Source: a virus (taxonomy: Duplodnaviria > Caudoviricetes). Taken from it: a stretch of 64,000 nucleotides of DNA. Positions 9,250-56,544 of this stretch are shown here, in pieces (position 1 is the stretch's first letter; each line of letters opens with the position of its first letter). A program made the translations under genes and the position numbers. Where the stretch lies: positions 41,869 through 105,868 of the IMG/VR virus record IMGVR_UViG_3300037067_017690. One strand, 5' to 3'. A model generated the notes under the pieces. It was not told the origin of the DNA. It ran no database searches and saw nothing but the letters and a program-made list of their open reading frames with translations.

Positions 9250-11811
9250 ATGATAAATACATATATACCCTTACACGTTCATTCAATGACTTCCTTTCTC
9301 GATGGATTTATTGATATTGAGAAATATGTCGCATTTTGTAAAGAACAACAATTTCCTGGTTGTGCAATTACAGATCATGGGAGTATGAGTTCAGTTATTG
9401 AATTCTATCAGCAATGTGAAAAACATAAAATCAATCCAATTATTGGTTGTGAAATGTACATTACACAAAAAGATGATAGAGATGAACCGATCCGAGATAA
9501 TTTTCACATAAATATATTTGCTAAAAATGAACAGGGATACAAAGAATTATGTACTATATTTACAGAATCTAATATTAATCGATATTATTATAGGCCAAGA
9601 ACTCATATTTCTGTTTTAAAAAAATATGCAAAAAATTTAATTTGTTCATCAGCTTGCATGTCCGGAGAAATTCAACAATGTTTATTGAAACATCCAAATG
9701 AAAAAGGATTAGCTATAGCAAAACTTAGAGAATATATGGATGTATTTGGAGATGATTTTTATATTGAACTCGTACTTGCAGATTTAAATGCTCAAAGAGA
9801 TGCAAATAAATTATTGATGGGATTGATAAAAGATTATAATCTAAAATTTATTATTACTACAGATGCTCACTATCTTAGACCTGAAGATGAAATTTGTCAA
9901 GATGTTTTATTAAAAATTCAACGTGAAGGTTTTACATTTTCTTCGAAAACTCATTGGGTAGCAACTTTTGATGAACTTAAAAAATTAGTAAAAGAACAAC
10001 ATCCATATATTAATGATGAATTTTTCAATAAGGCTATAGAATATACTCACGAGATCAATAAAAAAGTACATATTGATTTTTCTGAATGGATAGGTAAAAT
10101 TAATATGCCAGATTTCAAAAATGAATTAAATATGGATAATTTGAAATTCTTTGAAAAATTGACAGCAGAAGGCTTCGATAAATTTCTTGATAAATACGAA
10201 AAGTATGTTGGTCCAATGTCTGAAGAATTGGAAGAACGATACAGAAAACGAGTTAAATATGAATATGAAGTATTAGCAAAATCAGGAAGTTTTTTATATA
10301 TTTTACTTGTAAGAGATATAATTCAAAAAGCCCATAAATTAAAGACGATAATTAAACCCAACCAATTGAAGGTTGGTGATTATTTTTACAAGAATGAAAT
10401 TAAATATGCAGTTATTTCAATTGATTCAGAATTTATAGTGTTGAATTTTTTTAATAATCAAATAGAAAAAATTACATTGGATATTAATGAGAAAATTGAA
10501 TTGAGTAAAGAAATTATGACAGGGATGGGTCGAGGATCAGCCGCTGGTTCTCTGATTTGTTATTTATTAGATATTACTCAAATAGATCCAATTCGCAGAG
10601 ATTTACTTTTTGAACGTTTCGTAAACCCAACTAGATTGTTCGGAGGATTTCAACCAGAATTATCTTGTTTATCTTATGCAATGTATAAATTATATCATTA
10701 TAAAGAAGAACATGATAAATGGAATTTAGAAAATATCTTAAAAAAACATAATATCGAAATTGATGATAGATTAAGAATTGAAATTGATTTTTTTCAAAAA
10801 TATAATGCTGAACCATATATTTGTTATGTAGCTTCAAAAGAAGAATATCGTGAAACAAAAAATATCTTTAATTCTTGGTTATTATATCATTTAGGGATTA
10901 CAGATGAAGAACCTAAAGAAGATTTTAAAGCAAAATATTCTCCTCCAACTTTTCCTGATATAGATGTAGATTTTTCAGATAAAGGAAGAGCAGTTGATAT
11001 GATGGTTGAAAATTATGTGTCAAATAATAATGATCATATCACTAAAAGAAGAGCATATCCGGTTGCGGCTTTCGGACAGTTAAAATGCAAAGGAGCAATT
11101 AAAGATGTAGCAAAAGCTATTGAATCCATTATTATAGATTATTCGAAAACATGGGAAGAACATGAAAAAAATAATAAGAAAAAATATACAGATGAAACTG
11201 AAGATGGATTAAATGTGGCTCGTGATAAATGGGAGAAAGCAAAAGAAAATTATATCAAAGAAGGAATTTTTGATCCTAAAATGTTAAAATATTTATCATT
11301 TGAAAATGTCAATAAAGCGACTAGAGAAATGCCGGCTAATGTTACTTTCGATGATTTAAAAGCTGATAAAAATTTAAAATTATATAAAGAAATCCCTAAA
11401 GTGATGGAAATTGCTGAACGATTGGAATATACTAAAAAATATTTAGGAACTCATGCTTCAGCAGTGTGTATCATTCCTGAATATATGGTTGATTGTGTTC
11501 CGATAGCTAGAACTGGAGATGATTTTATTATAGCTATGAATGATGTTCAAGCATGTGGTGGAGATTATTCTAACAATTTAGGATTGGTTAAAAATGATAT
11601 TCTCGGATTAACTTCATTATTATTTTTACAAGAAGCTCAAGAGATGGCAGCAACTCATTTTGAAGTTATAGCAGAAAGTGGAAAGCGATATTGTTTTGAT
11701 TATAATGCAAAATTCGAATTAATAGATGGGACAATCAAACATATAATAGAATTACAAGAAGGAGATGATATAGTTGGCATCATTTCTGATGATGCCAACT
11801 ATATCAAATAA
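9250..11811 (+). CDS. dnaE: DNA polymerase III alpha, N-terminal part only (PHP + palm/thumb), ending in a Hint/intein-N-like segment
   Basis: LHVHS..SFLDG, AITDHG, IIGCE, TDAHY (PHP); GRGSAAGS, LLFERF, PDIDVDF, GTHASAV, KNDILGL; fingers/HhH/OB domains absent. Confidence 0.93.
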   Translation: MINTYIPLHVHSMTSFLDGFIDIEKYVAFCKEQQFPGCAITDHGSMSSVIEFYQQCEKHKINPIIGCEMYITQKDDRDEPIRDNFHINIFAKNEQGYKELCTIFTESNINRYYYRPRTHISVLKKYAKNLICSSACMSGEIQQCLLKHPNEKGLAIAKLREYMDVFGDDFYIELVLADLNAQRDANKLLMGLIKDYNLKFIITTDAHYLRPEDEICQDVLLKIQREGFTFSSKTHWVATFDELKKLVKEQHPYINDEFFNKAIEYTHEINKKVHIDFSEWIGKINMPDFKNELNMDNLKFFEKLTAEGFDKFLDKYEKYVGPMSEELEERYRKRVKYEYEVLAKSGSFLYILLVRDIIQKAHKLKTIIKPNQLKVGDYFYKNEIKYAVISIDSEFIVLNFFNNQIEKITLDINEKIELSKEIMTGMGRGSAAGSLICYLLDITQIDPIRRDLLFERFVNPTRLFGGFQPELSCLSYAMYKLYHYKEEHDKWNLENILKKHNIEIDDRLRIEIDFFQKYNAEPYICYVASKEEYRETKNIFNSWLLYHLGITDEEPKEDFKAKYSPPTFPDIDVDFSDKGRAVDMMVENYVSNNNDHITKRRAYPVAAFGQLKCKGAIKDVAKAIESIIIDYSKTWEEHEKNNKKKYTDETEDGLNVARDKWEKAKENYIKEGIFDPKMLKYLSFENVNKATREMPANVTFDDLKADKNLKLYKEIPKVMEIAERLEYTKKYLGTHASAVCIIPEYMVDCVPIARTGDDFIIAMNDVQACGGDYSNNLGLVKNDILGLTSLLFLQEAQEMAATHFEVIAESGKRYCFDYNAKFELIDGTIKHIIELQEGDDIVGIISDDANYIK

Positions 11812-19657: not shown

Positions 19658-20515
19658 ATGATAAATTATGGATTATTACCAGATAAAGAAGATCCAAGAG
19701 ATTTTTTATTTTTACAAGCTCCTGTAAAAAATAAAGAAATGCCTAATTCTATTGATTTAAGAAATTTGCAAGGTCCAATTACTGATCAAGGACATTTAGG
19801 CGCATGTACTGGTCATGCATTAGCAGGATTAAGAACTTATCTTGAACGAAAATCTCCATCATTTATTGATGGAAAAGCCGGAAAAGAAAATATTAATATT
19901 AATATTAATACATGTCCTGAAAGATCTATATGGGGAAATATTAAAAATTATGTAAATTCTTTATTTGTAAGTCGAAAAGTTGAACAATATTCTCCATTAT
20001 TTATTTATTATGAAATAAGAAGAAAAGAAGGTACTCTTGATAGAGATTCCGGTGGAACAATTAGAACTGGCATGAAAATCTTAAATAGTGTAGGAGCATG
20101 TTCGGAAAAAATTTGGCCATACAAAATTCGTAATTTCAATATTGAACCTCCTCGGAAAGCATATAGAACTGCTCGTAAAAATCAGGTACTTAGTTATTAT
20201 CGCATTACTGATGAAAATAAAATTCAACATATGAAAATCGCATTATCAAATAAATTAGGGATTGTTGGTGGATTAATGATTCATACTAATTTTTATAATG
20301 TAAGTAGTGAAGGATTTATTAGAGATTTAAATTCAAAAGATAGTCAAATTGGAGGGCATGCCATTTTATTTTGTGGGTTTAATGATTTATTAAAATGTTT
20401 TATTATTAGAAATAGTTGGGGAACTAATTGGGGGAAAAAAGGGTATGCGTTCATAAGTTATGATTATGTAGAAAAATATAGTGTGGATTTGTGGGTAGCT
20501 AATGAATGGGAGTGA
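19658..20515 (+). CDS. Papain-like cysteine protease (peptidase C1)
   Basis: DQGHLGACTGHA (Q, C), GGHAI (H), IRNSWGTNWG (N). Confidence 0.92.
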   Translation: MINYGLLPDKEDPRDFLFLQAPVKNKEMPNSIDLRNLQGPITDQGHLGACTGHALAGLRTYLERKSPSFIDGKAGKENINININTCPERSIWGNIKNYVNSLFVSRKVEQYSPLFIYYEIRRKEGTLDRDSGGTIRTGMKILNSVGACSEKIWPYKIRNFNIEPPRKAYRTARKNQVLSYYRITDENKIQHMKIALSNKLGIVGGLMIHTNFYNVSSEGFIRDLNSKDSQIGGHAILFCGFNDLLKCFIIRNSWGTNWGKKGYAFISYDYVEKYSVDLWVANEWE

Positions 20516-27938: not shown

Positions 27939-28367
27939 ATGCACTATTATAAACCAGAACATTTTATAATTCAAGAACTATTTGATGAACAAATAATCAA
28001 CATGTATGGCAATAAATGTTGGTCATTTATAGATAGCAGACTTCTGTATTCGATAGATCAAATTAGAAATTATTTCAATAAAAAAATTACAATTAATGAT
28101 TGGTTTTGGGGTGGTCAATTTAGTCAACGAGGTTTTCGCACTGATGCCAAAATGAATGCTCAAGCTCCATATTCACAACATGTATGCGGCAGAGCTGTTG
28201 ATTTCGATGTTGATGGATTAAGTGCTAACGATGTGAGATTGGCAATCATCACTAAAAAAAATACAGAACAATTTCAATATATTACCGCAATGGAAAAAGA
28301 TGTAAATTGGATACATATAGATGTGCGCAATATTTCGAATAGGATATTCCTTTTCGGCTCAAAATAA
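27939..28367 (+). CDS. Peptidase M15 (Zn D-Ala-D-Ala peptidase fold), probable endolysin
   Basis: RGFR...SQHVCGRAVDF...WIHID; preceded by TAAAATA-N5-ATG. Confidence 0.85.
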   Translation: MHYYKPEHFIIQELFDEQIINMYGNKCWSFIDSRLLYSIDQIRNYFNKKITINDWFWGGQFSQRGFRTDAKMNAQAPYSQHVCGRAVDFDVDGLSANDVRLAIITKKNTEQFQYITAMEKDVNWIHIDVRNISNRIFLFGSK

Positions 28368-28422: not shown

Positions 28423-28429
28423 TAAAATT
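28423..28429 (+). promoter_or_regulatory. Putative late promoter TAAAATT, 6 nt before ATG
   Basis: Motif match; no SD before the kinase start. Confidence 0.55.
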
Positions 28430-28435
28430 CTTCTT

Positions 28436-29257
28436 ATGGAAGAAAATAATAAATTACGTGAAAAAATGATTGTGCTTAATCATGATATTTCAAATCCATT
28501 GCAAACTATCTTAATGAATATTGAAATTATTTTTAAAACTCTTAAAAATAGCAATATAGATAGAAATATTTTTGAAAAACTTCAATTATGTTTAGAAAAA
28601 ATGATTGACGCAATTAAAGCAGTACAATTGACAGTTCATGATGTTTTAGATATTAATCAAGAAGTAGTTCCTTACAAAAGTTTGCAAAAACTATTAGAAG
28701 AAATTGCAATTCAATATGAAGATTTATATAATAGTGGAGTAAGATCATATGAATTTGCAGACAATACAATAAGTCAAAAAGAATTTTACGATTATAATAT
28801 TGACAAAATTATACGAATCATGAATAATCTTTTATCTAATGCCACTAAATATACACCAAATGGAATGATTATTATTACTTTAGAGGAAGAAGAAAATCAT
28901 TACATTATTAAGGTAAAAGATAATGGATATGGAATTCCTAAAGAAAAATTAGATAAAATATTTGATAAATCACAAATAAATTCACAATTTCAAACAATGG
29001 GGTTGGGGATTGGATTATCTATCGTAAAAGATTTGGTAAAATCTATGAATGGAGAAATACGAATAGCTTCAACGATAGGATTAGGAACTCAAATATCTAT
29101 CTTGATTCCAAAAATCCGTCAAGACGTATTGAATTATGATCTGGAAAAATTAGAAATAATTATGGAAAATATGGTAGAATTAAATAATCAAATTATTTAT
29201 AGATTATCAAATGAAAAAGAAATAAAAGAATTTGATTTAAATGAAAAACACCATTAA
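28436..29257 (+). CDS. Soluble histidine kinase (HisKA + HATPase), no sensor domain
   Basis: H-box NHDISNPL, N-box NNLLSNATKYT, G1 DNGYGI, F-box KIFD, G2 GLGIGLSIVK, GLGTQI. Confidence 0.92.
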   Translation: MEENNKLREKMIVLNHDISNPLQTILMNIEIIFKTLKNSNIDRNIFEKLQLCLEKMIDAIKAVQLTVHDVLDINQEVVPYKSLQKLLEEIAIQYEDLYNSGVRSYEFADNTISQKEFYDYNIDKIIRIMNNLLSNATKYTPNGMIIITLEEEENHYIIKVKDNGYGIPKEKLDKIFDKSQINSQFQTMGLGIGLSIVKDLVKSMNGEIRIASTIGLGTQISILIPKIRQDVLNYDLEKLEIIMENMVELNNQIIYRLSNEKEIKEFDLNEKHH

Positions 29258-29485
29258 AATTTATATTAGTTAGGAAAATTGTTCATAGGAGTTAAATGTG
29301 ACAAGTTCCGAAAAAGATTTAAATGTTCGGATGAAAAAGATTTTAGAATTAAAAACGATAGAAAATGTAATTTTATACAATTTATCAAGTCTATTAGAAT
29401 CTCTTTCTTTTTCAACAGAACAAAATATAAAAAAAATTACTATTCTCTGTTAAATCTCAGGTATATTTCTTTAAAGGAAAAATAT

Positions 29486-29707
29486 ATGCTTAAGACTTAT
29501 TCAGGATATACTAGTCATTTTAATAATGCCAAAAATTTTTTCAAAAAAAATGAATTTTTAGAAGCATTAAATTCAATTAATAAAGCTATTGAAGATTATT
29601 CAAATGGTATCGAATTATACGAATATAGAATTCAAATTTATAAACAATTAATTATAAAAGATGAAAAAATGGTGCAAGAATTATTGCCAGAAGATTTAAA
29701 ATCATGA
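29486..29707 (+). CDS. Small TPR-like protein
   Basis: AKNFFKKNEFLEALNSINKAI...LYEYRIQIY; start reassigned to ATG 29486 (AAGGA SD, GGTAT motif). Confidence 0.55.
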   Translation: MLKTYSGYTSHFNNAKNFFKKNEFLEALNSINKAIEDYSNGIELYEYRIQIYKQLIIKDEKMVQELLPEDLKS

Positions 29708-29877
29708 ATCTTTAAAATCGAAAATTGGATATTTGCCATTGAATTATTAGATCCTTTGGTTATTTAAAAATGTCTTTTGAAAAAATCTAATAATCACGAG
29801 TATTTCTAAATTGTTTCACTTTACTTTTCCTTTACAAAAAATCTTTTTTGATATAATGTATCTTTGAAATAAAAATT

Positions 29878-29908
29878 TCTTTACATTTTATTAGATAAAA
29901 TCTATAAT
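29878..29908 (+). promoter_or_regulatory. Sigma70-type (early) promoter TCTTTACA-17-TATAAT
   Basis: Near-consensus -35/-10. Confidence 0.75.
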
Positions 29909-29951
29909 AAAGTTAATTTAGAAGTTTTAGTTAGAGATAAAGGAGAATAAA

Positions 29952-30806
29952 ATGAGTGAAATAAAATCATGGGATTTTGATGTTAAAGAAGTGCTTTTGC
30001 AAGATATACCAGAGTTTAAGGGTGTTACAGGATTCGAAAGAGATAAAATTCTTATTAATGCCACAGATAAATCAAAACTTGGAATTGTTTCGAAAAAATA
30101 CACAGTTGTTTCTCATAAAATGGCAGTTAATACATTATTGCAATCGATCGGCGAAATTTCAAAAGATGATCGAAAATTTGAAAAAATGAACATTTTGGAA
30201 AATCGTTTAATTTTTGGTAAAAATAAATCAACAATGAAATTAGATATTGAATTTCCGGATGTTGTTTTCGATTTAGGAAAAACTCAAACAAATATTGATG
30301 ATATCGTTAATTTTCAATTTACATTATATAATGGATTAACTGGAAAAGATCCTTTTATAGTTCAATTTGGTGGTAATCGTTTAGTTTGCAAAAATGGGTT
30401 AACAACAAAAACAATCGTAAAAGATGTTCGATTTGTGCATAGAAATATTGATATTCAAGCTCTTAAGCAAGCTATAAAGAATCAATTTTCTGGATTCACA
30501 AAAATTGTAGATGAATGGAAAATGTTAAAAAATAAAAATATTTCTGATACAGATTTGAAAAAGTTTTTCAACCACTTAAATAAAGTTTCTTTAAAAAATT
30601 TTGTTCACAATTTTCATATAAAAAAAATTCAAACAATTTCTCCAGAAATTTTAGAAAAGGAAGGTAGAAACTTATGGACAGTTGCTAATTTAGCAACTAA
30701 TTATACAACTTATGATGCAAAGATTATTAAATCCGATAACGCATATCGGAGAATCAATCTTATTAATAATTTCTTTTATAATGAATGTTTAAAATTGGCT
30801 GCATAA
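29952..30806 (+). CDS. DUF932-family protein
   Basis: LGIVSKKYTVVSH, NGLTG, RLVCKNGL, NLWTVANLATNYTT. Confidence 0.8.
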   Translation: MSEIKSWDFDVKEVLLQDIPEFKGVTGFERDKILINATDKSKLGIVSKKYTVVSHKMAVNTLLQSIGEISKDDRKFEKMNILENRLIFGKNKSTMKLDIEFPDVVFDLGKTQTNIDDIVNFQFTLYNGLTGKDPFIVQFGGNRLVCKNGLTTKTIVKDVRFVHRNIDIQALKQAIKNQFSGFTKIVDEWKMLKNKNISDTDLKKFFNHLNKVSLKNFVHNFHIKKIQTISPEILEKEGRNLWTVANLATNYTTYDAKIIKSDNAYRRINLINNFFYNECLKLAA

Positions 30807-31495
30807 TGAAAGAAAAATTTTCAAAATTTTATAGACAATTTTTTAATTTAATATCTTCCGAAGCAGAATTAATAGAAAAAGCACTTTATAAATCTGATAC
30901 TTCACAATTTCAAAAATATGTAGATGAAGAGAAATCTATTCATAGTTATAAATGTTTTAATTTTAAAATAGATTTTTTTAAAGATTCACAAGATATTTTA
31001 AATGTATTTTTAGAACCTTTTGATGATAAATATGATTTTGCAATATTGTTAAATACTATAAAAATGAAAATAAAAAACAGAACAAAATTTTATATTATAT
31101 GTAATGACGAAGGAAAATTATCATCATTTAATATTGGAGAAATTAAAAATGGTTGTAATGGATGTTGTGTATTTTCAAAACAATTTATTGATTTCATAGT
31201 GCATAATTTGCATAAAATTATTGATGTAAGAAAAATAGTTGGATCAATATTATTAGAATTATCAGATATAAAAGACCCAGATCAATATTTTGAAGAATTA
31301 TTGTTTAGAACTTGGGCAAAAGTTAATAATGAAGGCATACAAATAACTTGGCGAAATTTAGAACAAATCTTATGCATTGATATTTTATCGACATTTTACA
31401 CTCATCTTAAAAAATCAGTTATTTATCCTTCTGAATTCCAATTAATTATTGATTATTCATATCAGGACGTGTTAAAATACTTTTTTTCTAATTAG
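30785..31495 (+). CDS. Hypothetical protein
   Basis: 236-aa ORF; true start probably the second Met near 30806. Confidence 0.55.
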   Translation: MFKIGCIMKEKFSKFYRQFFNLISSEAELIEKALYKSDTSQFQKYVDEEKSIHSYKCFNFKIDFFKDSQDILNVFLEPFDDKYDFAILLNTIKMKIKNRTKFYIICNDEGKLSSFNIGEIKNGCNGCCVFSKQFIDFIVHNLHKIIDVRKIVGSILLELSDIKDPDQYFEELLFRTWAKVNNEGIQITWRNLEQILCIDILSTFYTHLKKSVIYPSEFQLIIDYSYQDVLKYFFSN

Positions 31496-31506
31496 GGGGA
31501 GAAAAA

Positions 31507-32028
31507 ATGAATATAAATAAAATTTTAAAAGCAATGAAATTTGCTGCAGAATGTCATGCGAAACAATTTCGACAAAATGGAATTACTCCATACATTAATC
31601 ATCCAATAAGTGTAGCATATAAGGTGTCTACTTTAAAAGATGTTACTGAAGAAATGATTATAGCTGCTGTGTTGCACGATGTTTTAGAAGATTGTGAAGA
31701 AATTACACAAAAACAAATTGAAATAGAATTTGGTGCAACAGTAGCAAATTATGTGAATTGGCTAACAAATCAATCTAAAAAACTTGGTATTAAACCTCGA
31801 TCTTTTAGAAAGAAATATGATTGTGAACGATTGGCAAATGCTCCAATAGAAGTAAAAAAAATAAAATTATGTGATAGAATTAATAATCTTAGCGAATTAA
31901 AAGATTTTAATAAAAATTTTATTAGTATATACATAAATGAATCTGAAATGTTATTACATCATATTGGGAATGTTGATGCGGAATTATTACAAGAATTAAT
32001 GTCATTAATTATCAAAATTAGGGAATGA
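31507..32028 (+). CDS. HD-domain (p)ppGpp hydrolase-like protein (small alarmone hydrolase / Mesh1 type)
   Basis: FAAECHAKQFR...PYINHP...AAVLHDVLED...KLCDRINNL. Confidence 0.88.
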   Translation: MNINKILKAMKFAAECHAKQFRQNGITPYINHPISVAYKVSTLKDVTEEMIIAAVLHDVLEDCEEITQKQIEIEFGATVANYVNWLTNQSKKLGIKPRSFRKKYDCERLANAPIEVKKIKLCDRINNLSELKDFNKNFISIYINESEMLLHHIGNVDAELLQELMSLIIKIRE

Positions 32029-32967
32029 TTTAAAAACTTTAAAAATTTCATTATCTAATTTCCCATTCATTACATCTTGTTGTAAAGCTAAAATTCCTTC
32101 ACTATGAGCTCTACGAGGATGATATGGTCTTTCAGAAACAATTGCGTCATAAATATCAGCAATAGTAACAATCCTAACATATTCTGGGATATCATTTTTT
32201 GTCATACCAATAGGGTATCCAGATCCATCTAATTTTTCATGATGTTTGAAAGCAATTTCTTCTGCCAGAATCATAGAATCAATTCCAAATGCTGATAATG
32301 GTTCAAGAATTGTTTTCCCTTTTATTGTGTGCCTTTTAATCATATCAAATTCATTATCTGATAATTTTGTTGTTTTATTCAAAATATTTTCTGTAATTCC
32401 ATGTTTTCCTACATCATGCAACATTGCTGCTAATTTTAAATTCTGAATCATCGTTTCATCAAATTTCATCGCCGTAGCAATCGATGCAACTATTTTACTA
32501 ACTCTATCATTATGGCCTTTTGTCAATGGATCTCTTAATTCTTCAAGATTTGCAAAAGTTGTTATCATAATTTCTTCAGCTTTTTCAAAATTCAAAATTT
32601 TTGATTCTTTTAGTGCATTTTCTATTTTTCGTTTCAACATATGAAACGAAAATGGTTTTTGTATAGCATCATAAAAATTGGCTTTGAATAATTGTTCGTA
32701 TGATTCTGTAGATATAAATCCTGAAACAGCAATTATTGGAATATTATGATTCAATTCATTTATTTTTGCAGCTGTTTCAAATCCATCCATTAGTGGCATT
32801 TGTATGTCTAATAAAATTACATGAGGGATTGATCCATTTGTAATAGCATCTAAAAGAAGTTGACCATCTTTATATGTTGATATTTCATATTTGTCATTCA
32901 AAGTTTCTCGAATTGTATTTCTCATATAAATATTATCATCAGCATAAAATATTATTTTTTTAATCAT
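32005..32967 (-). CDS. Response regulator with REC + HD-GYP cyclic-dinucleotide phosphodiesterase domain
   Basis: REC: ADD, LLDIQMPLMDG, VSG, QKPF; HD-GYP: TKGHNDRV, LHDVGK, HHEKLDGSGYP, IADIYDA, RPY. Confidence 0.95.
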   Translation of the reverse strand: MIKKIIFYADDNIYMRNTIRETLNDKYEISTYKDGQLLLDAITNGSIPHVILLDIQMPLMDGFETAAKINELNHNIPIIAVSGFISTESYEQLFKANFYDAIQKPFSFHMLKRKIENALKESKILNFEKAEEIMITTFANLEELRDPLTKGHNDRVSKIVASIATAMKFDETMIQNLKLAAMLHDVGKHGITENILNKTTKLSDNEFDMIKRHTIKGKTILEPLSAFGIDSMILAEEIAFKHHEKLDGSGYPIGMTKNDIPEYVRIVTIADIYDAIVSERPYHPRRAHSEGILALQQDVMNGKLDNEIFKVFKSFPNFDN

Positions 32968-35325
32968 TTAATTTAATACCTTGCTGATTGAAGTGTTTTG
33001 AATTTCTGTAATATCCATACTATCTTTAATAAAAGGATATCTTAAAATTACAGAATTTGTTCTCACAAAATCTTCTATAATAAAATTAAGATATCTTTTC
33101 GAATATCGTGAAATTGTTTGCATTGGCATGGTAAATGAAGTTATGTTTTCAATAGTGGTAGGATTTAATTGATTATAAATTTTACCAGTTTGATCAATAA
33201 TTGAAATGGAATTAATTTGAATTCCATCATAGATTTTTTCATCATTTTCCCCTAATACAAAAGGACGAACGTTAATAATTGCATCATGACTGTAAATTCT
33301 ATAATTATCAAAATCTACTCCGTAAGTGAAAGTTGTAGAACCAATAATAGATTCTTCTTGACTATCAGGACTCATCGCTGTTATTACATCAGTATTTTTT
33401 CCTCCTGCGAGAGTGAAATTATCTACTTTTGCTATAGGGATAGGAATTTTTTGAAATTTTTTATGATTTGCCCAATAATTTTTTAATTGTTGGCCAGGAG
33501 CATAATGAGAATCATTCAACCCTGTAAGATCTATATTTGACGGAACAACAGGAGGAATTGTATTTTTATAATAATATATTTGCGTAGTAGATTCATTAAT
33601 TTTCTTCAAAGAAATATTTGATCCATCAAGATATTTTTTCAAATGTTTTCTATTACCTGATTCTATTTTATCTGTTAACCAATTAGTGTAATACCAAGCA
33701 GTGTCAACACCACCTCCATCTTTTTTATCTTCCATTTTTATTGCATCAGTAATATATTTTTCATTCCCATTACCAGTAGTTCTATATAAATCATTATACA
33801 AATGAATCCCATTTTTATAATATGTATTTTCTGAATCATACCATGAAGGTAAATACAACATATTCTTTCTTGCGTAACCACCCATTTTCGAAATATATTC
33901 AGATCTCCAAGACATTAATGTAATTAATTTTTCAGGATTCGATTCGACAATTAAATTTCCATATCTATCATTCGCATTATGAGCTGTAGTAGGCATCCAC
34001 ACAGGGCTATACACATTTTCTTGATTCCAATCTGTTCCTCGAAATAATCCATACATGCCCTGTGTTGTAAAACTTGTAAATGGAAATATTGATGCTGCAT
34101 CTTCACACATGGTACTTCTATCAAAAGCAAAAAGATATGAACTCAACGTTACCGCTGGAAATTCCATATCTTTATCTCTATAACTCGGGAACCCCAAAGG
34201 ATTTGTTGTATTTGTTTGATTTGTATAATTCCAATAGGCTTTTCCAGTCATCCCACAAAAAATTCTCCAATCTTGAGGATAAATATCTTTATTTTTAAAA
34301 GTCCATCCATCAACATTTATTGGAGGAAATTGCCAATATGTTTTATAAGACTTCCCTTTTTCGGCAACGTAAATATTGTGATAAGGACTATAATGAGGAT
34401 TTCCATTATAATTTATTCGATATTCTGTGTTTGGTCTATAAAATCTCCATTTTGAATGGTCTTCATTGGCACAATCCCATCTGACATTATTTACATAATC
34501 AAAATATTGGTTATAATTATGCACCATTGTATGAATCCCAGATTTTGTAAAAAATCTTTTTCCATTTGATACTAATCTACTTCTTAATGGTAAATTCATA
34601 ATTTTCCATCCGAATCCATCAATAATCTGATCACCAATTAATCCGACTGTTGGAAATCCAGTAACTTTATCAGTCATATTACCAATTGGAGGTCTTGCCT
34701 TTACCATTAAATCTTCAGCTGTGTGAATATTTTGGAAGAAATAAATTAATGATGATAAAATTTCATTTCCATTATTTAATGTAAAGAGAGTTTGAATGTA
34801 TTCAAAAGAAGTAGCACTATAACCTAAAGGATGGCCAATCATGGGAATTGATAGAAAATCATTAACTATAAGTGTATAAGCATTTGGTAATACATGAGGA
34901 AAATTAGGATTCAATAAATCCCATTTAAATGGTTGAGTCATTCCTCTATGAAATATATAAGTAACAAAAAATGATGATTGCAATAATTCTTTATACTGTC
35001 TTAAATAATATGTATTATTGTTATGTGTTTTTAAATACATTATAGAATTAGTAGCAGTTCGTCCTGGTGCATATTTTGGCACAGATTCAAAAGTAAGTCC
35101 TGAAGCAACTTGTTGAATATTTCCTAATGCTGGAATTCTTACAGTTTTTGTTTGATATTCAGTCCTTGGTCTAGTATATATATTAATAGATTGAGGAAGA
35201 GTTCGAGAAATATTTTTCTCTTTAGAATCTTTAAAATACAAGGATTCTTCATCTGAAATTGATTTACCGCCAATTTCATAATTTGTTATTGTAAATGTTT
35301 CTGAATAACTAAATATTTCTGCCAT
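32968..35325 (-). CDS. Large hypothetical protein, probably virion-associated
   Basis: 785 aa, aromatic/Asn/Thr-rich; in TAAAATT-led operon. Confidence 0.5.
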   Translation of the reverse strand: MAEIFSYSETFTITNYEIGGKSISDEESLYFKDSKEKNISRTLPQSINIYTRPRTEYQTKTVRIPALGNIQQVASGLTFESVPKYAPGRTATNSIMYLKTHNNNTYYLRQYKELLQSSFFVTYIFHRGMTQPFKWDLLNPNFPHVLPNAYTLIVNDFLSIPMIGHPLGYSATSFEYIQTLFTLNNGNEILSSLIYFFQNIHTAEDLMVKARPPIGNMTDKVTGFPTVGLIGDQIIDGFGWKIMNLPLRSRLVSNGKRFFTKSGIHTMVHNYNQYFDYVNNVRWDCANEDHSKWRFYRPNTEYRINYNGNPHYSPYHNIYVAEKGKSYKTYWQFPPINVDGWTFKNKDIYPQDWRIFCGMTGKAYWNYTNQTNTTNPLGFPSYRDKDMEFPAVTLSSYLFAFDRSTMCEDAASIFPFTSFTTQGMYGLFRGTDWNQENVYSPVWMPTTAHNANDRYGNLIVESNPEKLITLMSWRSEYISKMGGYARKNMLYLPSWYDSENTYYKNGIHLYNDLYRTTGNGNEKYITDAIKMEDKKDGGGVDTAWYYTNWLTDKIESGNRKHLKKYLDGSNISLKKINESTTQIYYYKNTIPPVVPSNIDLTGLNDSHYAPGQQLKNYWANHKKFQKIPIPIAKVDNFTLAGGKNTDVITAMSPDSQEESIIGSTTFTYGVDFDNYRIYSHDAIINVRPFVLGENDEKIYDGIQINSISIIDQTGKIYNQLNPTTIENITSFTMPMQTISRYSKRYLNFIIEDFVRTNSVILRYPFIKDSMDITEIQNTSISKVLN

Positions 35326-36037
35326 ACTGTTCTATCACTTTCAATAAATTTTCTGTAATAAATTGTAAAATTGTTGTCATTGAAAATGCTCTTATTTTGT
35401 TATTTATAAATTTCGAATAAAATTGAGCAATTTTCACATCTCCTAAAATAAGTTTTACTTTTATCAATTCTTCAATTTTGGTAAAATTGTAACAATCAAT
35501 TTCTAATATTGCAATGTTATTTTTCAATTTAATAAAATATTGAGGATTTAATATATCTAATTTTTTGTTCTTTTTTAATTCATTAATAATTTCTTTTTGA
35601 ATTAATCGTCGAAGTTGAATTTCAAGAATTTTTGAATTATTTTTAATTTCTGGAGGAATACCAATTATTTTTCTGGTTACAATTGCTGGAATATGTGTAA
35701 ATCCCATTTTTTTAGAAACATTATAACGATGAATCCCATCTGAAAGCCGATATTCTTTTAATTCTTCGTCATAATATAATTTGACTGGCGGCAAAGCCAT
35801 ATTATGTTCGAGACTCTGCATGATGGTTTCATATCTTTGTTGATTCCAAACATTTTCATCTTTGATTTCATTTATTGGAACTATTTCAAAATCATCTTTA
35901 AACCAATATCCATCTTCTAAGAAATTTACATATTGTTCAGCAAAATCATTATGAATCATTTTACGATCTAATTTATATTCATAATGCGTTTTTTGTGCAA
36001 TTTTAATCATTACAGATAAAATCATAATTATTCCCAA
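35309..36037 (-). CDS. ParB/Srx-like domain protein
   Basis: LPPVKL...YRLSDGIHRY...GFTHIPAIV; likely true start MILSVMIKIA. Confidence 0.8.
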   Translation of the reverse strand: MGIIMILSVMIKIAQKTHYEYKLDRKMIHNDFAEQYVNFLEDGYWFKDDFEIVPINEIKDENVWNQQRYETIMQSLEHNMALPPVKLYYDEELKEYRLSDGIHRYNVSKKMGFTHIPAIVTRKIIGIPPEIKNNSKILEIQLRRLIQKEIINELKKNKKLDILNPQYFIKLKNNIAILEIDCYNFTKIEELIKVKLILGDVKIAQFYSKFINNKIRAFSMTTILQFITENLLKVIEQYGRNI

Positions 36038-36867
36038 TTCCCATCTATTATATAAAATCTAAAATAAAAATTTTCAAGCACGCCAATTCTGCTCAATCCT
36101 ATTGTTGAAACCCATCCTGCTTCGCCAATATTTGCTCCATTTGGGGAATAATCCCCAGATCCTGCAGGGTTTTTTGTTAATAATTTATTAGTTCCTGAAA
36201 TAGCAGTAGTTGGGACTTGATTGCTATCTAAATTATATTTTTCTTCCAGAAATAACCCTACATCATTTAATGTAGAAGTTGAAAATATATCACTATCTCT
36301 AAAATCAGATCTTTTTGAAATCTCAATTAAATAATGTCCTCTACCACCTCGAACATCTCTTTTACCAGTTTTCAAATAAGATTTAATTATGAAATAATCA
36401 TTTGATTGATTAGCGTTGTATATTAATTCTGGAATCCCTATATCTACTGCCTTAATTCTCACAGTCCATAGGACAGATCCTGCTGGCATTATAATATTTA
36501 ACATGGAATCACCAAAATTAGATATTCTTGAAATTTCTTCTTCATCTTGGCTCACATATCCATCATCTGTTTGAACTTTTAAGAACGCAGTAATATTTCC
36601 TTGCTTTCTCATTTCTATTTTAAACCACTTGCCTGGAAGACTATTCACACTGATCGCAAAAGTGACTTGTTGAGCGGTAGCAGATATGTTTTTGAATCCT
36701 TGACCATTATAAATATGATATTGGTCATTAACTCGAACAATCATGTCTGTTTCTGGATCATGTGTTCCTTCTAATGGGATTGTAGTATAAATTTCAGGAC
36801 TGATTCTTATTTCAGTCCAATTATTCCCATAATTTTGAAATGTGGTTGCACCTAAATGAATTGCCAT
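36028..36867 (-). CDS. Hypothetical beta-rich protein, probably virion-associated
   Basis: 279 aa, TAAAATT-N5-ATG start. Confidence 0.5.
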   Translation of the reverse strand: MAIHLGATTFQNYGNNWTEIRISPEIYTTIPLEGTHDPETDMIVRVNDQYHIYNGQGFKNISATAQQVTFAISVNSLPGKWFKIEMRKQGNITAFLKVQTDDGYVSQDEEEISRISNFGDSMLNIIMPAGSVLWTVRIKAVDIGIPELIYNANQSNDYFIIKSYLKTGKRDVRGGRGHYLIEISKRSDFRDSDIFSTSTLNDVGLFLEEKYNLDSNQVPTTAISGTNKLLTKNPAGSGDYSPNGANIGEAGWVSTIGLSRIGVLENFYFRFYIIDGNWE

Positions 36868-42439: not shown

Positions 42440-42699
42440 TCAATAATCCTCCAATGATTTTTAATATTTGATTTGAGAACCACACCATGTTCGCCTAATT
42501 GAACATTCTTCATAGACTTTTTTTCTCCAGCAGTAGAAACCACACTAATTTCGTAACAATCATTCATATCACGAATGACTTTTATTCGAGTGCCTTTTGG
42601 GGCAACTAATATATCTAATTTTCGGGTGTCTTTGAAAATTGGTGTTTTTATCAATTTTGCTTCAAATCTTAACTGACTATATTCGCATTTATTCGGCAT
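42436..42699 (-). CDS. Hypothetical small protein, SH3-like
   Basis: 87 aa; largely intergenic position; start uncertain. Confidence 0.4.
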   Translation of the reverse strand: MPNKCEYSQLRFEAKLIKTPIFKDTRKLDILVAPKGTRIKVIRDMNDCYEISVVSTAGEKKSMKNVQLGEHGVVLKSNIKNHWRIIE

Positions 42700-44072
42700 T
42701 TTCCCACTCCTTCTATATTCACAGTTGTAGATGCATATCCATTCGCATTTGTAATTGAACTAGGAGTAACTAAAGTTGCTGATACTGTCGCATCAGGAAC
42801 TATTTCCCAATTCAATGTGACACCTTGAATAGGCTCATCACTTGCATCTGTTACTTTTCCAGTTATAATAATTGTTTTTTCTATATTTTCCCATTCAAAA
42901 GTTTTCTCATTTGCTGTTAATTGCAATATATATCCATTCATTAAAGTTCTGAAAATTATTTCATTACTATTTTCAGTTGTGTAAATAACTTGTTCAGAAG
43001 GAAAATCAACAAGTACATCTTTAATCAAATCTGTTATGTAATATCCACCTATGTAAGTAATAGAATCAGAAAATACTTTATAAATTGATAATTTTGTATC
43101 TCCTGATTCGTTCCCTACAATTATTGATAATCCAGCAACTCTATCAAAAATAAATTGTTCTAATGTGAGGGCAAATGTTTTAGTAGCAACAAGCCAATTT
43201 GAAGTTTTTGTAACATCATAAATTTGCAAAGAATTTGTTTTAAGTATAACTATATAGCCTTTTTCTCCAATAAAATATTCTAAACCAACTAAATTAGCTA
43301 TTCCAATTGGAATTGTTTTTGTGATGATTTTTACTATTGGATCAATAATTATTACATCATCTCCAGAAGTAGAAATTAAATTTTCTCCAGTAGTAAATTT
43401 AACACCTTCTCCTTCAAAAGAATATCCCCCATCATTCGTAATAAAACCACCTTCTCCAGGTAATGTTAACCAATTCTCGATATTGCCAGAACTTAAATCA
43501 TATCTAAATATATATTGTGAATTTTTTTTGGTTATAAAAAATAAATTATTTGTACCAACTAATTTGAAATCTTGCTGTTCGGTTACAAATTCATTAAGTG
43601 TAAATCCTGTATTTCTGACAGACACAGTATCAGTAACATAATTCCATTTGATTTCTTCAATATCACCAGTATAAATCCTAAATAAAAATAAAAAATTATT
43701 ATCAATAGCATCTACAGAAAATAAATGCAATGTTATTTTTAATTCAGTTGAATAAGGGATTGTCCTTGTTAACACATTTGTATCTTGTAAAATATTTCCG
43801 GTCATATCAATAATAACCATGCGAAGTGTTAAAATTAAATCTCCACCAATATCTTCTTCATATTTTTCTAAAAGCAATCCCAATCTATCTAAATTATTTA
43901 AAAATTGGGCATCAAGAATATTCCATCCTGCAAAATCAAAAGATGAAATAACTGTTTCTGTAAAATTAAATAAAATTCCTGCATTATTATCATTACCTAT
44001 AGAACAAAATCCTTTATTAGATAATCTTGATATTCTAAATAATTGAGCTGCACCTGTTAAATTTATCGACAT
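42669..44072 (-). CDS. Putative tail protein: beta-propeller-like + C-terminal Ig-like (Big_1-type) domain
   Basis: ITGKVTDASDEPIQGVTLNW...SSITNANGYASTTV. Confidence 0.6.
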   Translation of the reverse strand: MSINLTGAAQLFRISRLSNKGFCSIGNDNNAGILFNFTETVISSFDFAGWNILDAQFLNNLDRLGLLLEKYEEDIGGDLILTLRMVIIDMTGNILQDTNVLTRTIPYSTELKITLHLFSVDAIDNNFLFLFRIYTGDIEEIKWNYVTDTVSVRNTGFTLNEFVTEQQDFKLVGTNNLFFITKKNSQYIFRYDLSSGNIENWLTLPGEGGFITNDGGYSFEGEGVKFTTGENLISTSGDDVIIIDPIVKIITKTIPIGIANLVGLEYFIGEKGYIVILKTNSLQIYDVTKTSNWLVATKTFALTLEQFIFDRVAGLSIIVGNESGDTKLSIYKVFSDSITYIGGYYITDLIKDVLVDFPSEQVIYTTENSNEIIFRTLMNGYILQLTANEKTFEWENIEKTIIITGKVTDASDEPIQGVTLNWEIVPDATVSATLVTPSSITNANGYASTTVNIEGVGKCRINANIVS

Positions 44073-54540: not shown

Positions 54541-56544
54541 TCAAATAGTTGCAGCTACATAAACAAACACTTGCCCGGGACTAATAACTGTAAATGAAGG
54601 TTGTTCTTCGGATCCCCCAGCAGAAGTTCTTCTGGCTTTACCAGATGCATTAGTCCAGTATGTAAACGTCGGGCGGTTTGTAGTTCCGCCCGTTGTGGTT
54701 ACGACCACCTGAACGTCTTCGAGCGGATTATTATCCGGATCATAAACCCAGATGTCGCAATAAATTTGATGCCCTTGTCCTCCAGGGTTGACGAAATTAA
54801 ATGAACCTCCATAATTCATGAATGCAGTAACACTTCCTCCAGGAGGATTGTAACGTTCATAAACATGAATATAGATTTTCATATTTGAATAATAATCGAA
54901 GAAATGCAATTCAATTGGTGTAGGTTCTGATACATAGGCAACCTGACGAATGAAATTCATAAAAGCAATTTTTCCAGTAGTAGAAGTTTTATAAGATTCT
55001 ACAGGATTTGCAGTACTTCCAGAATAGTCATAAACAATATTATCATGATCTGTATTATTTAAACAAACCAAGAATTTTTTATGATAATAATCCCAACTAG
55101 AATCCATATATTCGTATGAGCTATAAATATGCCATAATTGAGATCCACCAGCAGGATAAGTAGCTCTATCATAGAGATAGATATCATTTTGAAGAACCAC
55201 AGGAATATAATTATTTTGATCATCATATTCATAGACATTAAATTTTTGAAGAACTTCGTAAGTAGAAGTCCCATCTGGAATTATCCAGAAATTTATTTCC
55301 ACTGTAATATCACCAGTTGATGAATTTCCTGCAATTTTTCTTACTTGTCCGACACCAGTACCAGCGGAAATTCTTACATAATTACCTTTGAATTGATCTA
55401 ATGTCCAAGATTTAACATCTGATATTGTAGAAGCTGTAGCACTATCTACTTGACCAGTTTCCATTACATTATTGATTGCTAATTGCGATTTTGCTCCAGT
55501 TGTAACAAGCATTCTTCCAATTGTAGTACTAGAATTTGTTGTATCGATATAATGAATACAATCTGATGAAGAATTAGATCCGATGAAAAACATTTTTCGA
55601 TCTACAAAATAATTGACAAAGGAAGTGCTATAAATTTCGTATTGAGTAGTATTAGTTGGAATTGCCACATTGAATTTTTGCCACCCAACAGTAAGTGTAT
55701 TTGCTGTATTTGCTGTAATAATTCTTATTTGACCAACACCAGTACCAGAAACTAATCGACATAAACGTCCGACATGAACATTTGTAGTCCAAGATTTAGA
55801 TGTATCTTCTAAAGTATTTAATGTGGAACCCGAAGTAGCAGTTCCAGAATCAACAATTGTTCCTGTTTGTTGAAAAATACCAGTATCTACAGAATAGGTA
55901 AGAATTCCATGATTATTTAATCCATCGCACATTACATATAAAACTTTTCTGTAAGGATCAGCAACACAATTAACAAAGCCATAATCAGAAACTTGTGGTC
56001 CAGTTGGATACACAGCAGTAGAATATTCTCTTGTATTTTCCCAAAGTGCAACAAAAGTTCTATCTACTATATCGAGAGCAATAATGTAATCGTAAGAAAC
56101 ATAATTTCCAGAAGAATTATTGAAATAAACTTTTGATGAAATCCAATACACTAAACGATTAGCTAAATCAAGACATTGAGCTTTGATACTCGAATTATTT
56201 GGAAAATAATTTACACCTAATGATGGGAATCTAGTAATTTGAGAAGTTTTCTGCGAGGGAGAATTCGGTGACGTTGTATCCCATGCCTGAAAACTTCCAC
56301 TTAGAGGATTTGCTAAAAATAACATATGAGATACAGGATCGATTAACATTCCCACATCTTTTGTAATTCCTCCGGGACCATTGATTGTAGATAATGCAGA
56401 AGATGTAGAAAAACTATCAAGATTTAAAAGTGTTACAGTATTACTATCACTATATGAAGCAAATAGAACTCCATTGGATAGATCTTTTTGATAGCCATTT
56501 AGAGTACCAGCTAGCACACTCGAGTCAAAATTTCCTGAAGGCAT
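54541..56544 (-). CDS. Putative tail fibre/virion protein with two SGTAT/GTGVGQxR modules and Ig-like end
   Basis: VDSGTATSG...SGTGVGQIR, AGTGVGQVR; VYDPDNNPLEDVQV...TNASG. Confidence 0.65.
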   Translation of the reverse strand: MPSGNFDSSVLAGTLNGYQKDLSNGVLFASYSDSNTVTLLNLDSFSTSSALSTINGPGGITKDVGMLIDPVSHMLFLANPLSGSFQAWDTTSPNSPSQKTSQITRFPSLGVNYFPNNSSIKAQCLDLANRLVYWISSKVYFNNSSGNYVSYDYIIALDIVDRTFVALWENTREYSTAVYPTGPQVSDYGFVNCVADPYRKVLYVMCDGLNNHGILTYSVDTGIFQQTGTIVDSGTATSGSTLNTLEDTSKSWTTNVHVGRLCRLVSGTGVGQIRIITANTANTLTVGWQKFNVAIPTNTTQYEIYSTSFVNYFVDRKMFFIGSNSSSDCIHYIDTTNSSTTIGRMLVTTGAKSQLAINNVMETGQVDSATASTISDVKSWTLDQFKGNYVRISAGTGVGQVRKIAGNSSTGDITVEINFWIIPDGTSTYEVLQKFNVYEYDDQNNYIPVVLQNDIYLYDRATYPAGGSQLWHIYSSYEYMDSSWDYYHKKFLVCLNNTDHDNIVYDYSGSTANPVESYKTSTTGKIAFMNFIRQVAYVSEPTPIELHFFDYYSNMKIYIHVYERYNPPGGSVTAFMNYGGSFNFVNPGGQGHQIYCDIWVYDPDNNPLEDVQVVVTTTGGTTNRPTFTYWTNASGKARRTSAGGSEEQPSFTVISPGQVFVYVAATI

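Follow-up and report, generated by a model that had tools for sequence, protein, structure and literature searches.

A sensor-less histidine kinase and a receiver-HD-GYP regulator encoded by a large tailed phage may form a signalling module directed at nucleotide second messengers

We focused on a 64,000-nucleotide stretch of viral DNA, hereafter called the window, which comprises bases 41869-105868 of IMG/VR virus record IMGVR_UViG_3300037067_017690. The contig as a whole is 105,868 bp long, has 29% G+C and contains 0 tRNA genes. Two genes of the window are of particular concern here. One encodes a small histidine kinase with no sensor domain. The other encodes a response regulator in which a receiver domain (REC) is fused to an HD-GYP domain. 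A gene for a small alarmone hydrolase converges on the regulator gene. Bacteria signal mainly through two-component systems. To our knowledge, such systems have scarcely been described as functional components of lytic phages. The initial annotation of this DNA proposed that the virus runs kinase and regulator as a single cascade, expressed late, that drains a host second messenger.

The kinase consists of three parts: a DHp hairpin (residues 2-73) containing His16, a catalytic ATP-binding domain (83-225) and a C-terminal tail (229-273). The Pfam HATPase_c profile matches with 83.4 bits. A phmmer alignment pairs residues 13-229 with the HK853 cytoplasmic core, so that His16 equates to HK853 His260. 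In an alignment of 41 sequences, N131, N135, D162, G164, G166, G191 and G193, from the N, G1 and G2 boxes, are invariant. The AlphaFold2 (AF2) model has a mean predicted local distance difference test (pLDDT) score of 80. It contains helices at 2-37 and 43-73 followed by the catalytic domain, and the tail is poorly defined. Foldseek matches the model to HK853, ZraS and WalK, each with a probability of 1.0. The stop-to-stop reading frame spans 304 codons, at most 31 more than the 273-codon open reading frame (ORF), and only 15 residues precede the His. Hence, there is no room for a sensor upstream. A hidden N-terminal sensor or membrane segment is ruled out on the same grounds. The kinase is therefore as initially described: intact, with conserved catalytic boxes, and devoid of sensor and transmembrane regions. 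His16 is followed by D-I-S-N. An E/D-x-x-T/N sequence after the His is the phosphatase motif of HisKA kinases. The H-D-x-x-N motif suggests that the kinase may also dephosphorylate its partner. When all six frames of the contig, about 106 kb, were scanned against Pfam, one HATPase_c kinase and two receivers were detected. The kinase described here is the sole histidine kinase.

We searched 1.8 billion representatives exhaustively with HMMER and identified a very small family of sensor-less mini-kinases. The family has four members, including the query, that range from 220 to 286 amino acids. The others are P0244 (250 amino acids, 39% identical to the kinase, on a 5-kb metagenome contig), P0391 (286 amino acids, 43%, the full-length cluster-mate of P0245, on a 23.5-kb metagenome contig) and P0122 (220 amino acids, 39%, on L010, a 1-kb contig with 28% G+C). 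The His is invariant in all four proteins and is found at position 16-20. The C-terminal tail is conserved in three of the four, again counting the query, with the pattern PK-x-x-x-D...L-x-x-(I/L)-(V/M)-x-N-(I/L/M)-(V/I)-E-(V/L)-x-(N/D)-(K/Q)-(I/L)-x-Y-(K/R)-L. Identity is 38-43% inside the family but no more than 32%, over the full length, in 185,579 species genomes. Scans of IMG/VR with single proteins and alignments returned nothing, or distant kinases only. Of two scans of Joint Genome Institute (JGI) metagenomes, the first returned nothing and the second only generic kinases, with at most 32% full-length identity.

Among named cellular kinases, the nearest are orphan proteins of clostridia, with about 33% identity. 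One of these adjoins a small acid-soluble spore protein gene. One possibility is that the main role of the kinase is to interfere with signalling in the host. The kinase would phosphorylate or dephosphorylate a host regulator, such as a developmental master regulator, or form a phosphate sink with a stand-alone receiver encoded elsewhere on the contig. The H-D-x-x-N phosphatase motif is consistent with such a role. However, the identity is low and may reflect common AT-rich composition, and the phage supplies two receivers itself. We consider interference as the main role improbable.

The regulator consists of REC (residues 4-124) and HD-GYP (127-313, with HD, HHE and GYP motifs). The corresponding Pfam scores are 74.2 bits for Response_reg and 102.9 bits for HD_5. 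The REC pocket is complete, comprising D10, D11, D54, S82 and K104. In an alignment of 80 REC-HD-GYP sequences, H152, H184, D185, H213, H242, H243, E244, G250, Y251 and D271 of the regulator are invariant; P252 is also present. The AF2 model has a pLDDT of 94.7. Using Foldseek, the HD-GYP half superposes on PA4781 (template modelling (TM) score 0.79, root-mean-square deviation 2.1 Å), PmGH and DvhD. The REC half superposes on RR468 (TM score 0.91). The PDB sequence matches are PmGH (4mcw, 107 bits), V-cGAP3 (5z7c, 100.5 bits) and PA4781 (4r8z, 76 bits). Consistent with the initial annotation, acceptor Asp D54 and the full set of HD and GYP motifs are present. We consider it quite probable that the HD-GYP domain is an active cyclic-dinucleotide phosphodiesterase.

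Four relatives of the regulator are 42-46% identical to it and all other proteins are at most 38% identical. The best cellular match in species genomes has 34% identity over the full length. In a quick tree, where the branch is long and the composition AT-rich, the regulator and its four relatives form one branch with a Shimodaira-Hasegawa-like approximate likelihood ratio test (SH-aLRT) value of 100. The five-member clade is found only on low-GC, phage-like contigs. One of these, an 11-kb JGI contig (L002; JGI 3300009860, contig Ga0130032_1000296), carries P0004, which is 43% identical to the regulator and has the same gene order. The order on L002 is a giant protein, a 468-amino-acid protein (62% identical to its counterpart), proteins of 387, 276 and 783 amino acids, the regulator and a converging homologue of a 236-amino-acid protein of the window. 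The series of 276 amino acids, 783 amino acids and regulator is preserved. Because L002 repeats the gene order of the window, we conclude that the regulator has been inherited together with neighbouring structural genes over deep divergence. Judged from the tree and the synteny, the regulator is a long-standing phage gene. Both syntenic regulators keep D10, D11, D54, S82 and K104.

Two further features of the clade were apparent. Residue 142 of the regulator (P0002), within a LEEL motif at the start of HD-GYP, is Glu in all five phage-clade proteins and Val or Ile in 67 of 75 cellular homologues. In addition, the relative on L001 (JGI 3300033146, a 32.7-kb contig) has a degenerate receiver with an acceptor His. 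Its gene is located within a phage-like nucleotide-metabolism block encoding ThyX, an exonuclease, a MazG-like pyrophosphatase, a homing endonuclease, a NUDIX protein, a deoxynucleoside monophosphate kinase and a caspase-like Peptidase_C14.

The second receiver of the contig is a stand-alone REC. It scored 108.8 bits in the genome scan and 109.6 bits as a protein against Pfam. The acidic DD pair, D51, T81 and K103 are present, and the best PDB match is RR468 (95.8 bits). The gene is translationally coupled between genes for two paralogous proteins of repeats of about 23 amino acids, and lies about 69 kb from the kinase gene. The contig thus offers the kinase two or more candidate partners, and it lacks 58% of the genome. 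The six-frame Pfam scan detected no Hpt domain and no GGDEF domain on the contig. Lacking an Hpt domain, a multistep relay of the Hpt-mediated type is ruled out within the available contig.

We put the chance that the kinase is the phosphoryl donor of the REC-HD-GYP protein just short of even. Several observations weigh against a module of this kind. First, the two genes are in separate, convergent units, 2.7 kb apart on opposite strands, with five ORFs between. Hence, the kinase gene is neither in the operon of the regulator nor directly adjacent, as a cognate kinase of an RpfG-type regulator would be. Second, the stand-alone REC is, on sequence grounds, an equally good kinase partner. Third, no kinase gene lies closer than 10 kb to the relatives of the regulator on L001 and L004-L006. 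Fourth, the acceptor Asp is replaced in three of the five clade members, by Asn in P0003 and by His in P0005 and P0006. In the latter two, the acidic pair has also become D-K and the Thr/Ser position Ile. Among the 80 homologues, these 3 alone lack the acceptor Asp. Fifth, the two syntenic regulators have different residues at positions corresponding to the RR468 interface (Y, M, T, T versus C, S, L, I). Sixth, the kinase scores 19.7 bits against HisKA, below the Pfam gathering cut-off of 26.9; judging from the predicted model, it is the fold and not the profile that identifies this divergent DHp. Finally, the solved relatives of the regulator include enzymes for both cyclic di-GMP (c-di-GMP; PmGH) and 3'3'-cyclic GMP-AMP (3'3'-cGAMP; V-cGAP3), and sequence does not decide the substrate.

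The main rival explanation is that the kinase and the REC-HD-GYP protein are not partners. The kinase would serve the stand-alone receiver or host regulators. The regulator would use host kinases or acetyl phosphate, or run constitutively. The separate transcription units and the relatives with no kinase nearby, three of them lacking the acceptor Asp, fit such an arrangement. So does the complete pocket of the stand-alone receiver, whose best match, RR468, is the single-domain partner of HK853. Conversely, this receiver is remote from the kinase and sits in an unrelated repeat-protein operon. The regulator in the lineage of the window keeps all five residues for phospho-chemistry, and with 42% of the genome in hand further partners may exist. 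We regard separate wiring as rather doubtful.

At 21 of 64 cellular REC-HD-GYP loci, about one third, a HisKA-type kinase is encoded within 5 kb, and an HD-GYP protein is encoded near 4 of 84 cellular kinase loci. Together, these figures do not discriminate between partners. At the HK853 interface (PDB 4jas), the kinase is identical at one of five positions (T24, M27, I31, K55 and D58 versus A268, A271, T275, V294 and D297); this HK853/RR468 comparison is descriptive and picks no partner. Of the phage-run cascade initially proposed, the intact sensor-less kinase and the intact REC-HD-GYP protein stand. The two being one cascade does not stand in the same way, given the separate convergent units and the second canonical receiver. 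Co-occurrence in relatives, suggested at the outset as a check, was not seen within 10 kb at the four loci named above, and L002 ends before the position of the kinase. Since the acceptor Asp is lost in three of the five clade members, HD-GYP output can persist without phospho-control. As read from the alignment, HD-GYP output is always conserved in the clade, and phospho-control is kept in the lineage of the window and lost in others.

The gene converging on the regulator gene encodes a hydrolase that matches HD_4 (61.3 bits), phrog_990 (101.6 bits), the MESH1 structure 3nr1 (59.6 bits) and the hydrolase region of TIGR00691 (75 bits). Several other small alarmone hydrolase structures are also matched. 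The protein is HD_4 alone, with no synthetase domain. No alarmone hydrolase is present at the corresponding position of L002. The draining of host second messengers, as put forward initially, is a reasonable reading and is strengthened by this MESH1-like enzyme next to the HD-GYP gene. We conclude that the virus probably destroys host nucleotide second messengers.

A different purpose for the HD-GYP domain would be to counter immunity. It would mainly degrade cyclic di- or oligonucleotides of the cyclic oligonucleotide-based antiphage signalling system (CBASS) type, rather than tune c-di-GMP levels for biofilm formation or motility. This is compatible with either wiring. Consistent with such a purpose, a counter-nucleotide defence role has been predicted for the HD-GYP and HD-alarmone phosphodiesterases that jumbo phages encode (Iyer, Anantharaman, Krishnan, Burroughs and Aravind 2021, PMC7824862). 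Among solved relatives, V-cGAP3, which acts on 3'3'-cGAMP, ranks second, the alarmone hydrolase is adjacent and the contig has no GGDEF gene. However, c-di-GMP is the substrate of the best solved relatives (PmGH, PA4781 and DvhD). In NCBIfam, the top match is the NosR-family c-di-GMP phosphodiesterase regulator NF053512, at 118.2 bits, far under the cut-off of 400. Our literature searches found no experimental HD-GYP anti-CBASS protein. Immunity as the main target seems unlikely to us.

Table 1. Features of the window and contig. Positions are those of the window unless stated otherwise; L002 is the 11-kb JGI contig with the syntenic regulator.
Feature	Length (amino acids)	Position	Strand	Evidence or remarks
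Sensor-less mini histidine kinase	273	28436..29257	+	HATPase_c, HK853 alignment, AF2, Foldseek
REC-HD-GYP response regulator (P0002)	320	32005..32967	-	Pfam, PDB matches, AF2, Foldseek
Small alarmone hydrolase, MESH1/SpoT-hydrolase type HD_4	173	31507..32028	+	Converges on regulator, 24-nucleotide overlap with its 3' end
Stand-alone REC	119	Contig bases 1227-1586 (L007), 41 kb upstream of window	+	Pfam, PDB
Three upstream genes of regulator operon	279, 242 and 785	32968..36867	-	Weak ParB_N match in the 242-amino-acid protein
236-amino-acid protein	236	30785..31495	+	35% identity to L002:10260-11009, which converges on the L002 regulator
M15 peptidase endolysin-like gene		27939..28367	+	Own TAAAATA-N5-ATG start; Peptidase_M15_3 29.2 bits; phrog_894 endolysin 81.3 bits
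TAAAATT-N6-ATG start motif of kinase gene		28423..28438	+	No Shine-Dalgarno sequence; candidate -10 element of leaderless mRNA
Papain-family (Peptidase_C1) cysteine protease		19658-20515	+	47.7 bits
DnaE-type (Pol III alpha-like) polymerase	853	9250-11811	+	About 25% identity to Streptomyces-phage DnaE-like polymerases
Protein with C-terminal Ig-like Big_1	467	42669-44072	-	
Protein with C-terminal Ig-like Big_1	667	54541-56544	-	

The regulator gene is the last of a gap-free operon, in the order 279, 242, 785 amino acids and regulator, whose genes overlap tightly or abut. As described initially, the TAA codon of the 785-amino-acid gene abuts the ATG of the regulator gene. The same neighbour had been called virion-like, which we could not support. 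The 785-amino-acid protein has no recognisable family or fold in Pfam, PHROG or the ESM Atlas, and Big_1 is found only on other nearby genes. Among 5.8 billion proteins it has one homologue, on L002. Hence, sampling of the lineage is too thin to test co-occurrence with this gene as the anchor. The 236-amino-acid protein likewise has no family or fold match in profile libraries or the ESM Atlas. Both Big_1 proteins adjoin giant ORFs, of 2552 and 1545 amino acids, which suggests that they form a virion-surface or tail module.

On the other side, the kinase gene directly follows the endolysin-like gene and has its own start motif, both as initially reported. The operon of the regulator is also motif-led, with TAAAATT-N5-ATG at 36867(-). 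The bare motif is marginally enriched (10 matches versus 5.8 ± 2.4 expected; 5 of 100 shuffles reach 10). TAAAAT(T/A)-N5/6-ATG has 19 matches genome-wide. Eight of the 19 lead ORFs of at least 100 amino acids, versus a background of 11% (binomial p = 5e-4). Motif-led ORFs include the endolysin, the papain-like peptidase, the kinase, the regulator operon and the two giants. Within the window, the motif-led ATG codons are at 19658(+), 27939(+), 28436(+), 36867(-), 51730(-) and 61918(-). The papain-family protease gene has the TAAAATT form of the motif. When aligned, the sites have a common extended pattern, often preceded by G-rich bases, and the starts have no Shine-Dalgarno sequence. Many other genes of the contig have ribosome sites of the AAGGAG type. 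A -10-like hexamer 5-6 nucleotides before the ATG would fit a phage-specific promoter of leaderless mRNAs. The late timing initially ascribed to the kinase and the regulator operon would rest on this common start-linked motif. A scan for sigma-70 promoters and terminators performed no better than shuffles in this AT-rich DNA.

The contig is an IMG/VR virus record with a CheckV completeness of 42%. Hallmark genes are located upstream of the window: the large terminase (240.7 bits), portal (295.7), head maturation protease (110) and major head protein (196.3). The window itself encodes a DnaE-type polymerase, a helicase, a connector, the M15 endolysin, a homing endonuclease and a TnpB-type transposase. 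The polymerase resembles the DnaE-like enzymes of Streptomyces phages. The nearest named relatives of the portal are from Virus Rctr197k (35% identity) and Bacillus phage G (31%). The next are from Rhizobium, Dickeya and Xanthomonas phages of 190-260 kb. The contig is a fragment, about 40%, of a large jumbo-type tailed phage genome. It is viral and not cellular, as the terminase, portal, protease and major head genes and the jumbo-like portal indicate; the refuting condition named initially, a cellular contig, does not hold. A cellular or prophage origin is ruled out by the phage hallmark genes.

Searches of GenBank phages by megablast and tblastn found no close relative and only distant matches, mostly unannotated faecal contigs. 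In five portal-related jumbo phages, HD_5 and REC are both absent. Their HATPase_c matches are GHKL open frames of 620-700 amino acids, not histidine kinases. Because these phages lack REC and HD-GYP, the signalling set is accessory; it is lineage-specific cargo. One could go further and regard the genes as recent functionless cargo, or the contig as cellular or a prophage. The five phages without the set, and the merely distant matches in GenBank phage records, would agree with this. However, phage hallmark genes are present, the gene order around the regulator is kept in a second phage at 43% identity, and the clade of the regulator, on a long branch, is phage-only. The catalytic residues are all intact, and neither kinase nor regulator has a close cellular donor. 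We find functionless cargo or a cellular contig scarcely credible.

In its combination of REC and HD-GYP, with complete pocket and catalytic motifs, the regulator matches those of the RpfC/RpfG type (Xanthomonas RpfG, Pseudomonas PA4781 and Thermotoga TM0186). The cellular homologues are often encoded beside HisKA-type kinases. Unlike these systems, the one described here is encoded by a virus. Its kinase has no sensor, membrane, Hpt or REC modules, and kinase and regulator are in different operons. Furthermore, the phage regulator belongs to a separate phage-only clade, part of which lacks the acceptor Asp. For the kinase, the closest model is the HK853/RR468 pair of Thermotoga maritima. The phage kinase aligns with HK853 over the DHp and catalytic core, and the stand-alone receiver matches RR468. 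HK853 has a membrane-anchored sensor, whereas the phage kinase starts 15 residues before its His.

Like the phages discussed in PMC7824862, this is a large phage with both an HD-GYP enzyme and a SpoT/MESH1-type hydrolase. In that work, receiver domains are treated only as a divergent, kinase-independent version. Here, in contrast, a canonical receiver is joined to the HD-GYP domain, and the phage has a further receiver as well as a histidine kinase. The only cultured-phage HD-GYP match in GenBank is to Microcystis phage MaAM05, and covers the HD-GYP half alone. In the literature that could be searched, we found phage proteins that interfere with host two-component systems and phage HD-GYP predictions, but no phage-borne set of kinase plus REC-HD-GYP. 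Of a counter-nucleotide set made up of kinase, receivers and alarmone hydrolase, the HD-GYP and alarmone part has been proposed already (PMC7824862). No phage with the added canonical receiver and histidine kinase came up in the literature searched.

The Acb1 and Apyc1 nucleases, which act against CBASS and against the pyrimidine cyclase system for antiphage resistance (Pycsar), share the proposed purpose of destroying cyclic nucleotide immune signals. Acb1 has a 2H phosphoesterase fold; the phage regulator belongs instead to the unrelated HD superfamily. Acb1 and Apyc1 are not known to be under phosphorylation control.

The explanation that we tentatively favour is an accessory signalling module of the phage, in which the kinase acts on the REC-HD-GYP protein to attack nucleotide second messengers. 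In its favour, both proteins are intact, the only histidine kinase gene of the contig lies 2.7 kb from the regulator gene, both syntenic regulators keep the five residues for phospho-chemistry, and about one third of cellular REC-HD-GYP loci have a HisKA-type kinase nearby. In addition, an alarmone hydrolase gene is adjacent, and the start motif recurs at the endolysin and giant ORFs. Having no input domain, the kinase would have its own synthesis as the signal, from a TAAAATT-led, probably leaderless transcript beside the endolysin gene. It would autophosphorylate His16 using host ATP. The phosphoryl group would pass to Asp54 of the REC-HD-GYP protein, with Asp51 of the stand-alone receiver as a possible second acceptor. 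Phosphorylation would then relieve inhibition of HD-GYP by REC, as in RpfG-type regulators. In turn, HD-GYP would hydrolyse a cyclic dinucleotide, most likely c-di-GMP and possibly CBASS signals of the 3'3'-cGAMP type. In parallel, the neighbouring hydrolase would remove (p)ppGpp or (p)ppApp. Overall, the alarm and lifestyle messengers of the infected host cell would collapse at a time set by the phage.

A bolder form of this scheme is conceivable, and we hold it with less assurance. The set may be a self-contained viral phosphorelay, with kinase expression as the clock and one or two phage receivers as the outputs. Cyclic dinucleotides would be destroyed at a set point of infection, beside alarmone removal. 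Sister lineages would have short-circuited the relay by means of a phosphorylation-independent pseudo-receiver.

If the proposed wiring is true, it would show that a virus can set when host second messengers are removed, be they c-di-GMP, CBASS signals or (p)ppGpp, through a phosphorylation switch that it encodes itself. Such a switch would matter for the dispersal of biofilms, the timing of lysis and the evasion of immunity. The kinase, a natural DHp-plus-catalytic core of 273 amino acids, may find use as a minimal model, or as a part that supplies constitutive kinase activity. That three of the five regulators in the clade have lost the acceptor Asp is a small natural experiment on the gain and loss of receiver control.

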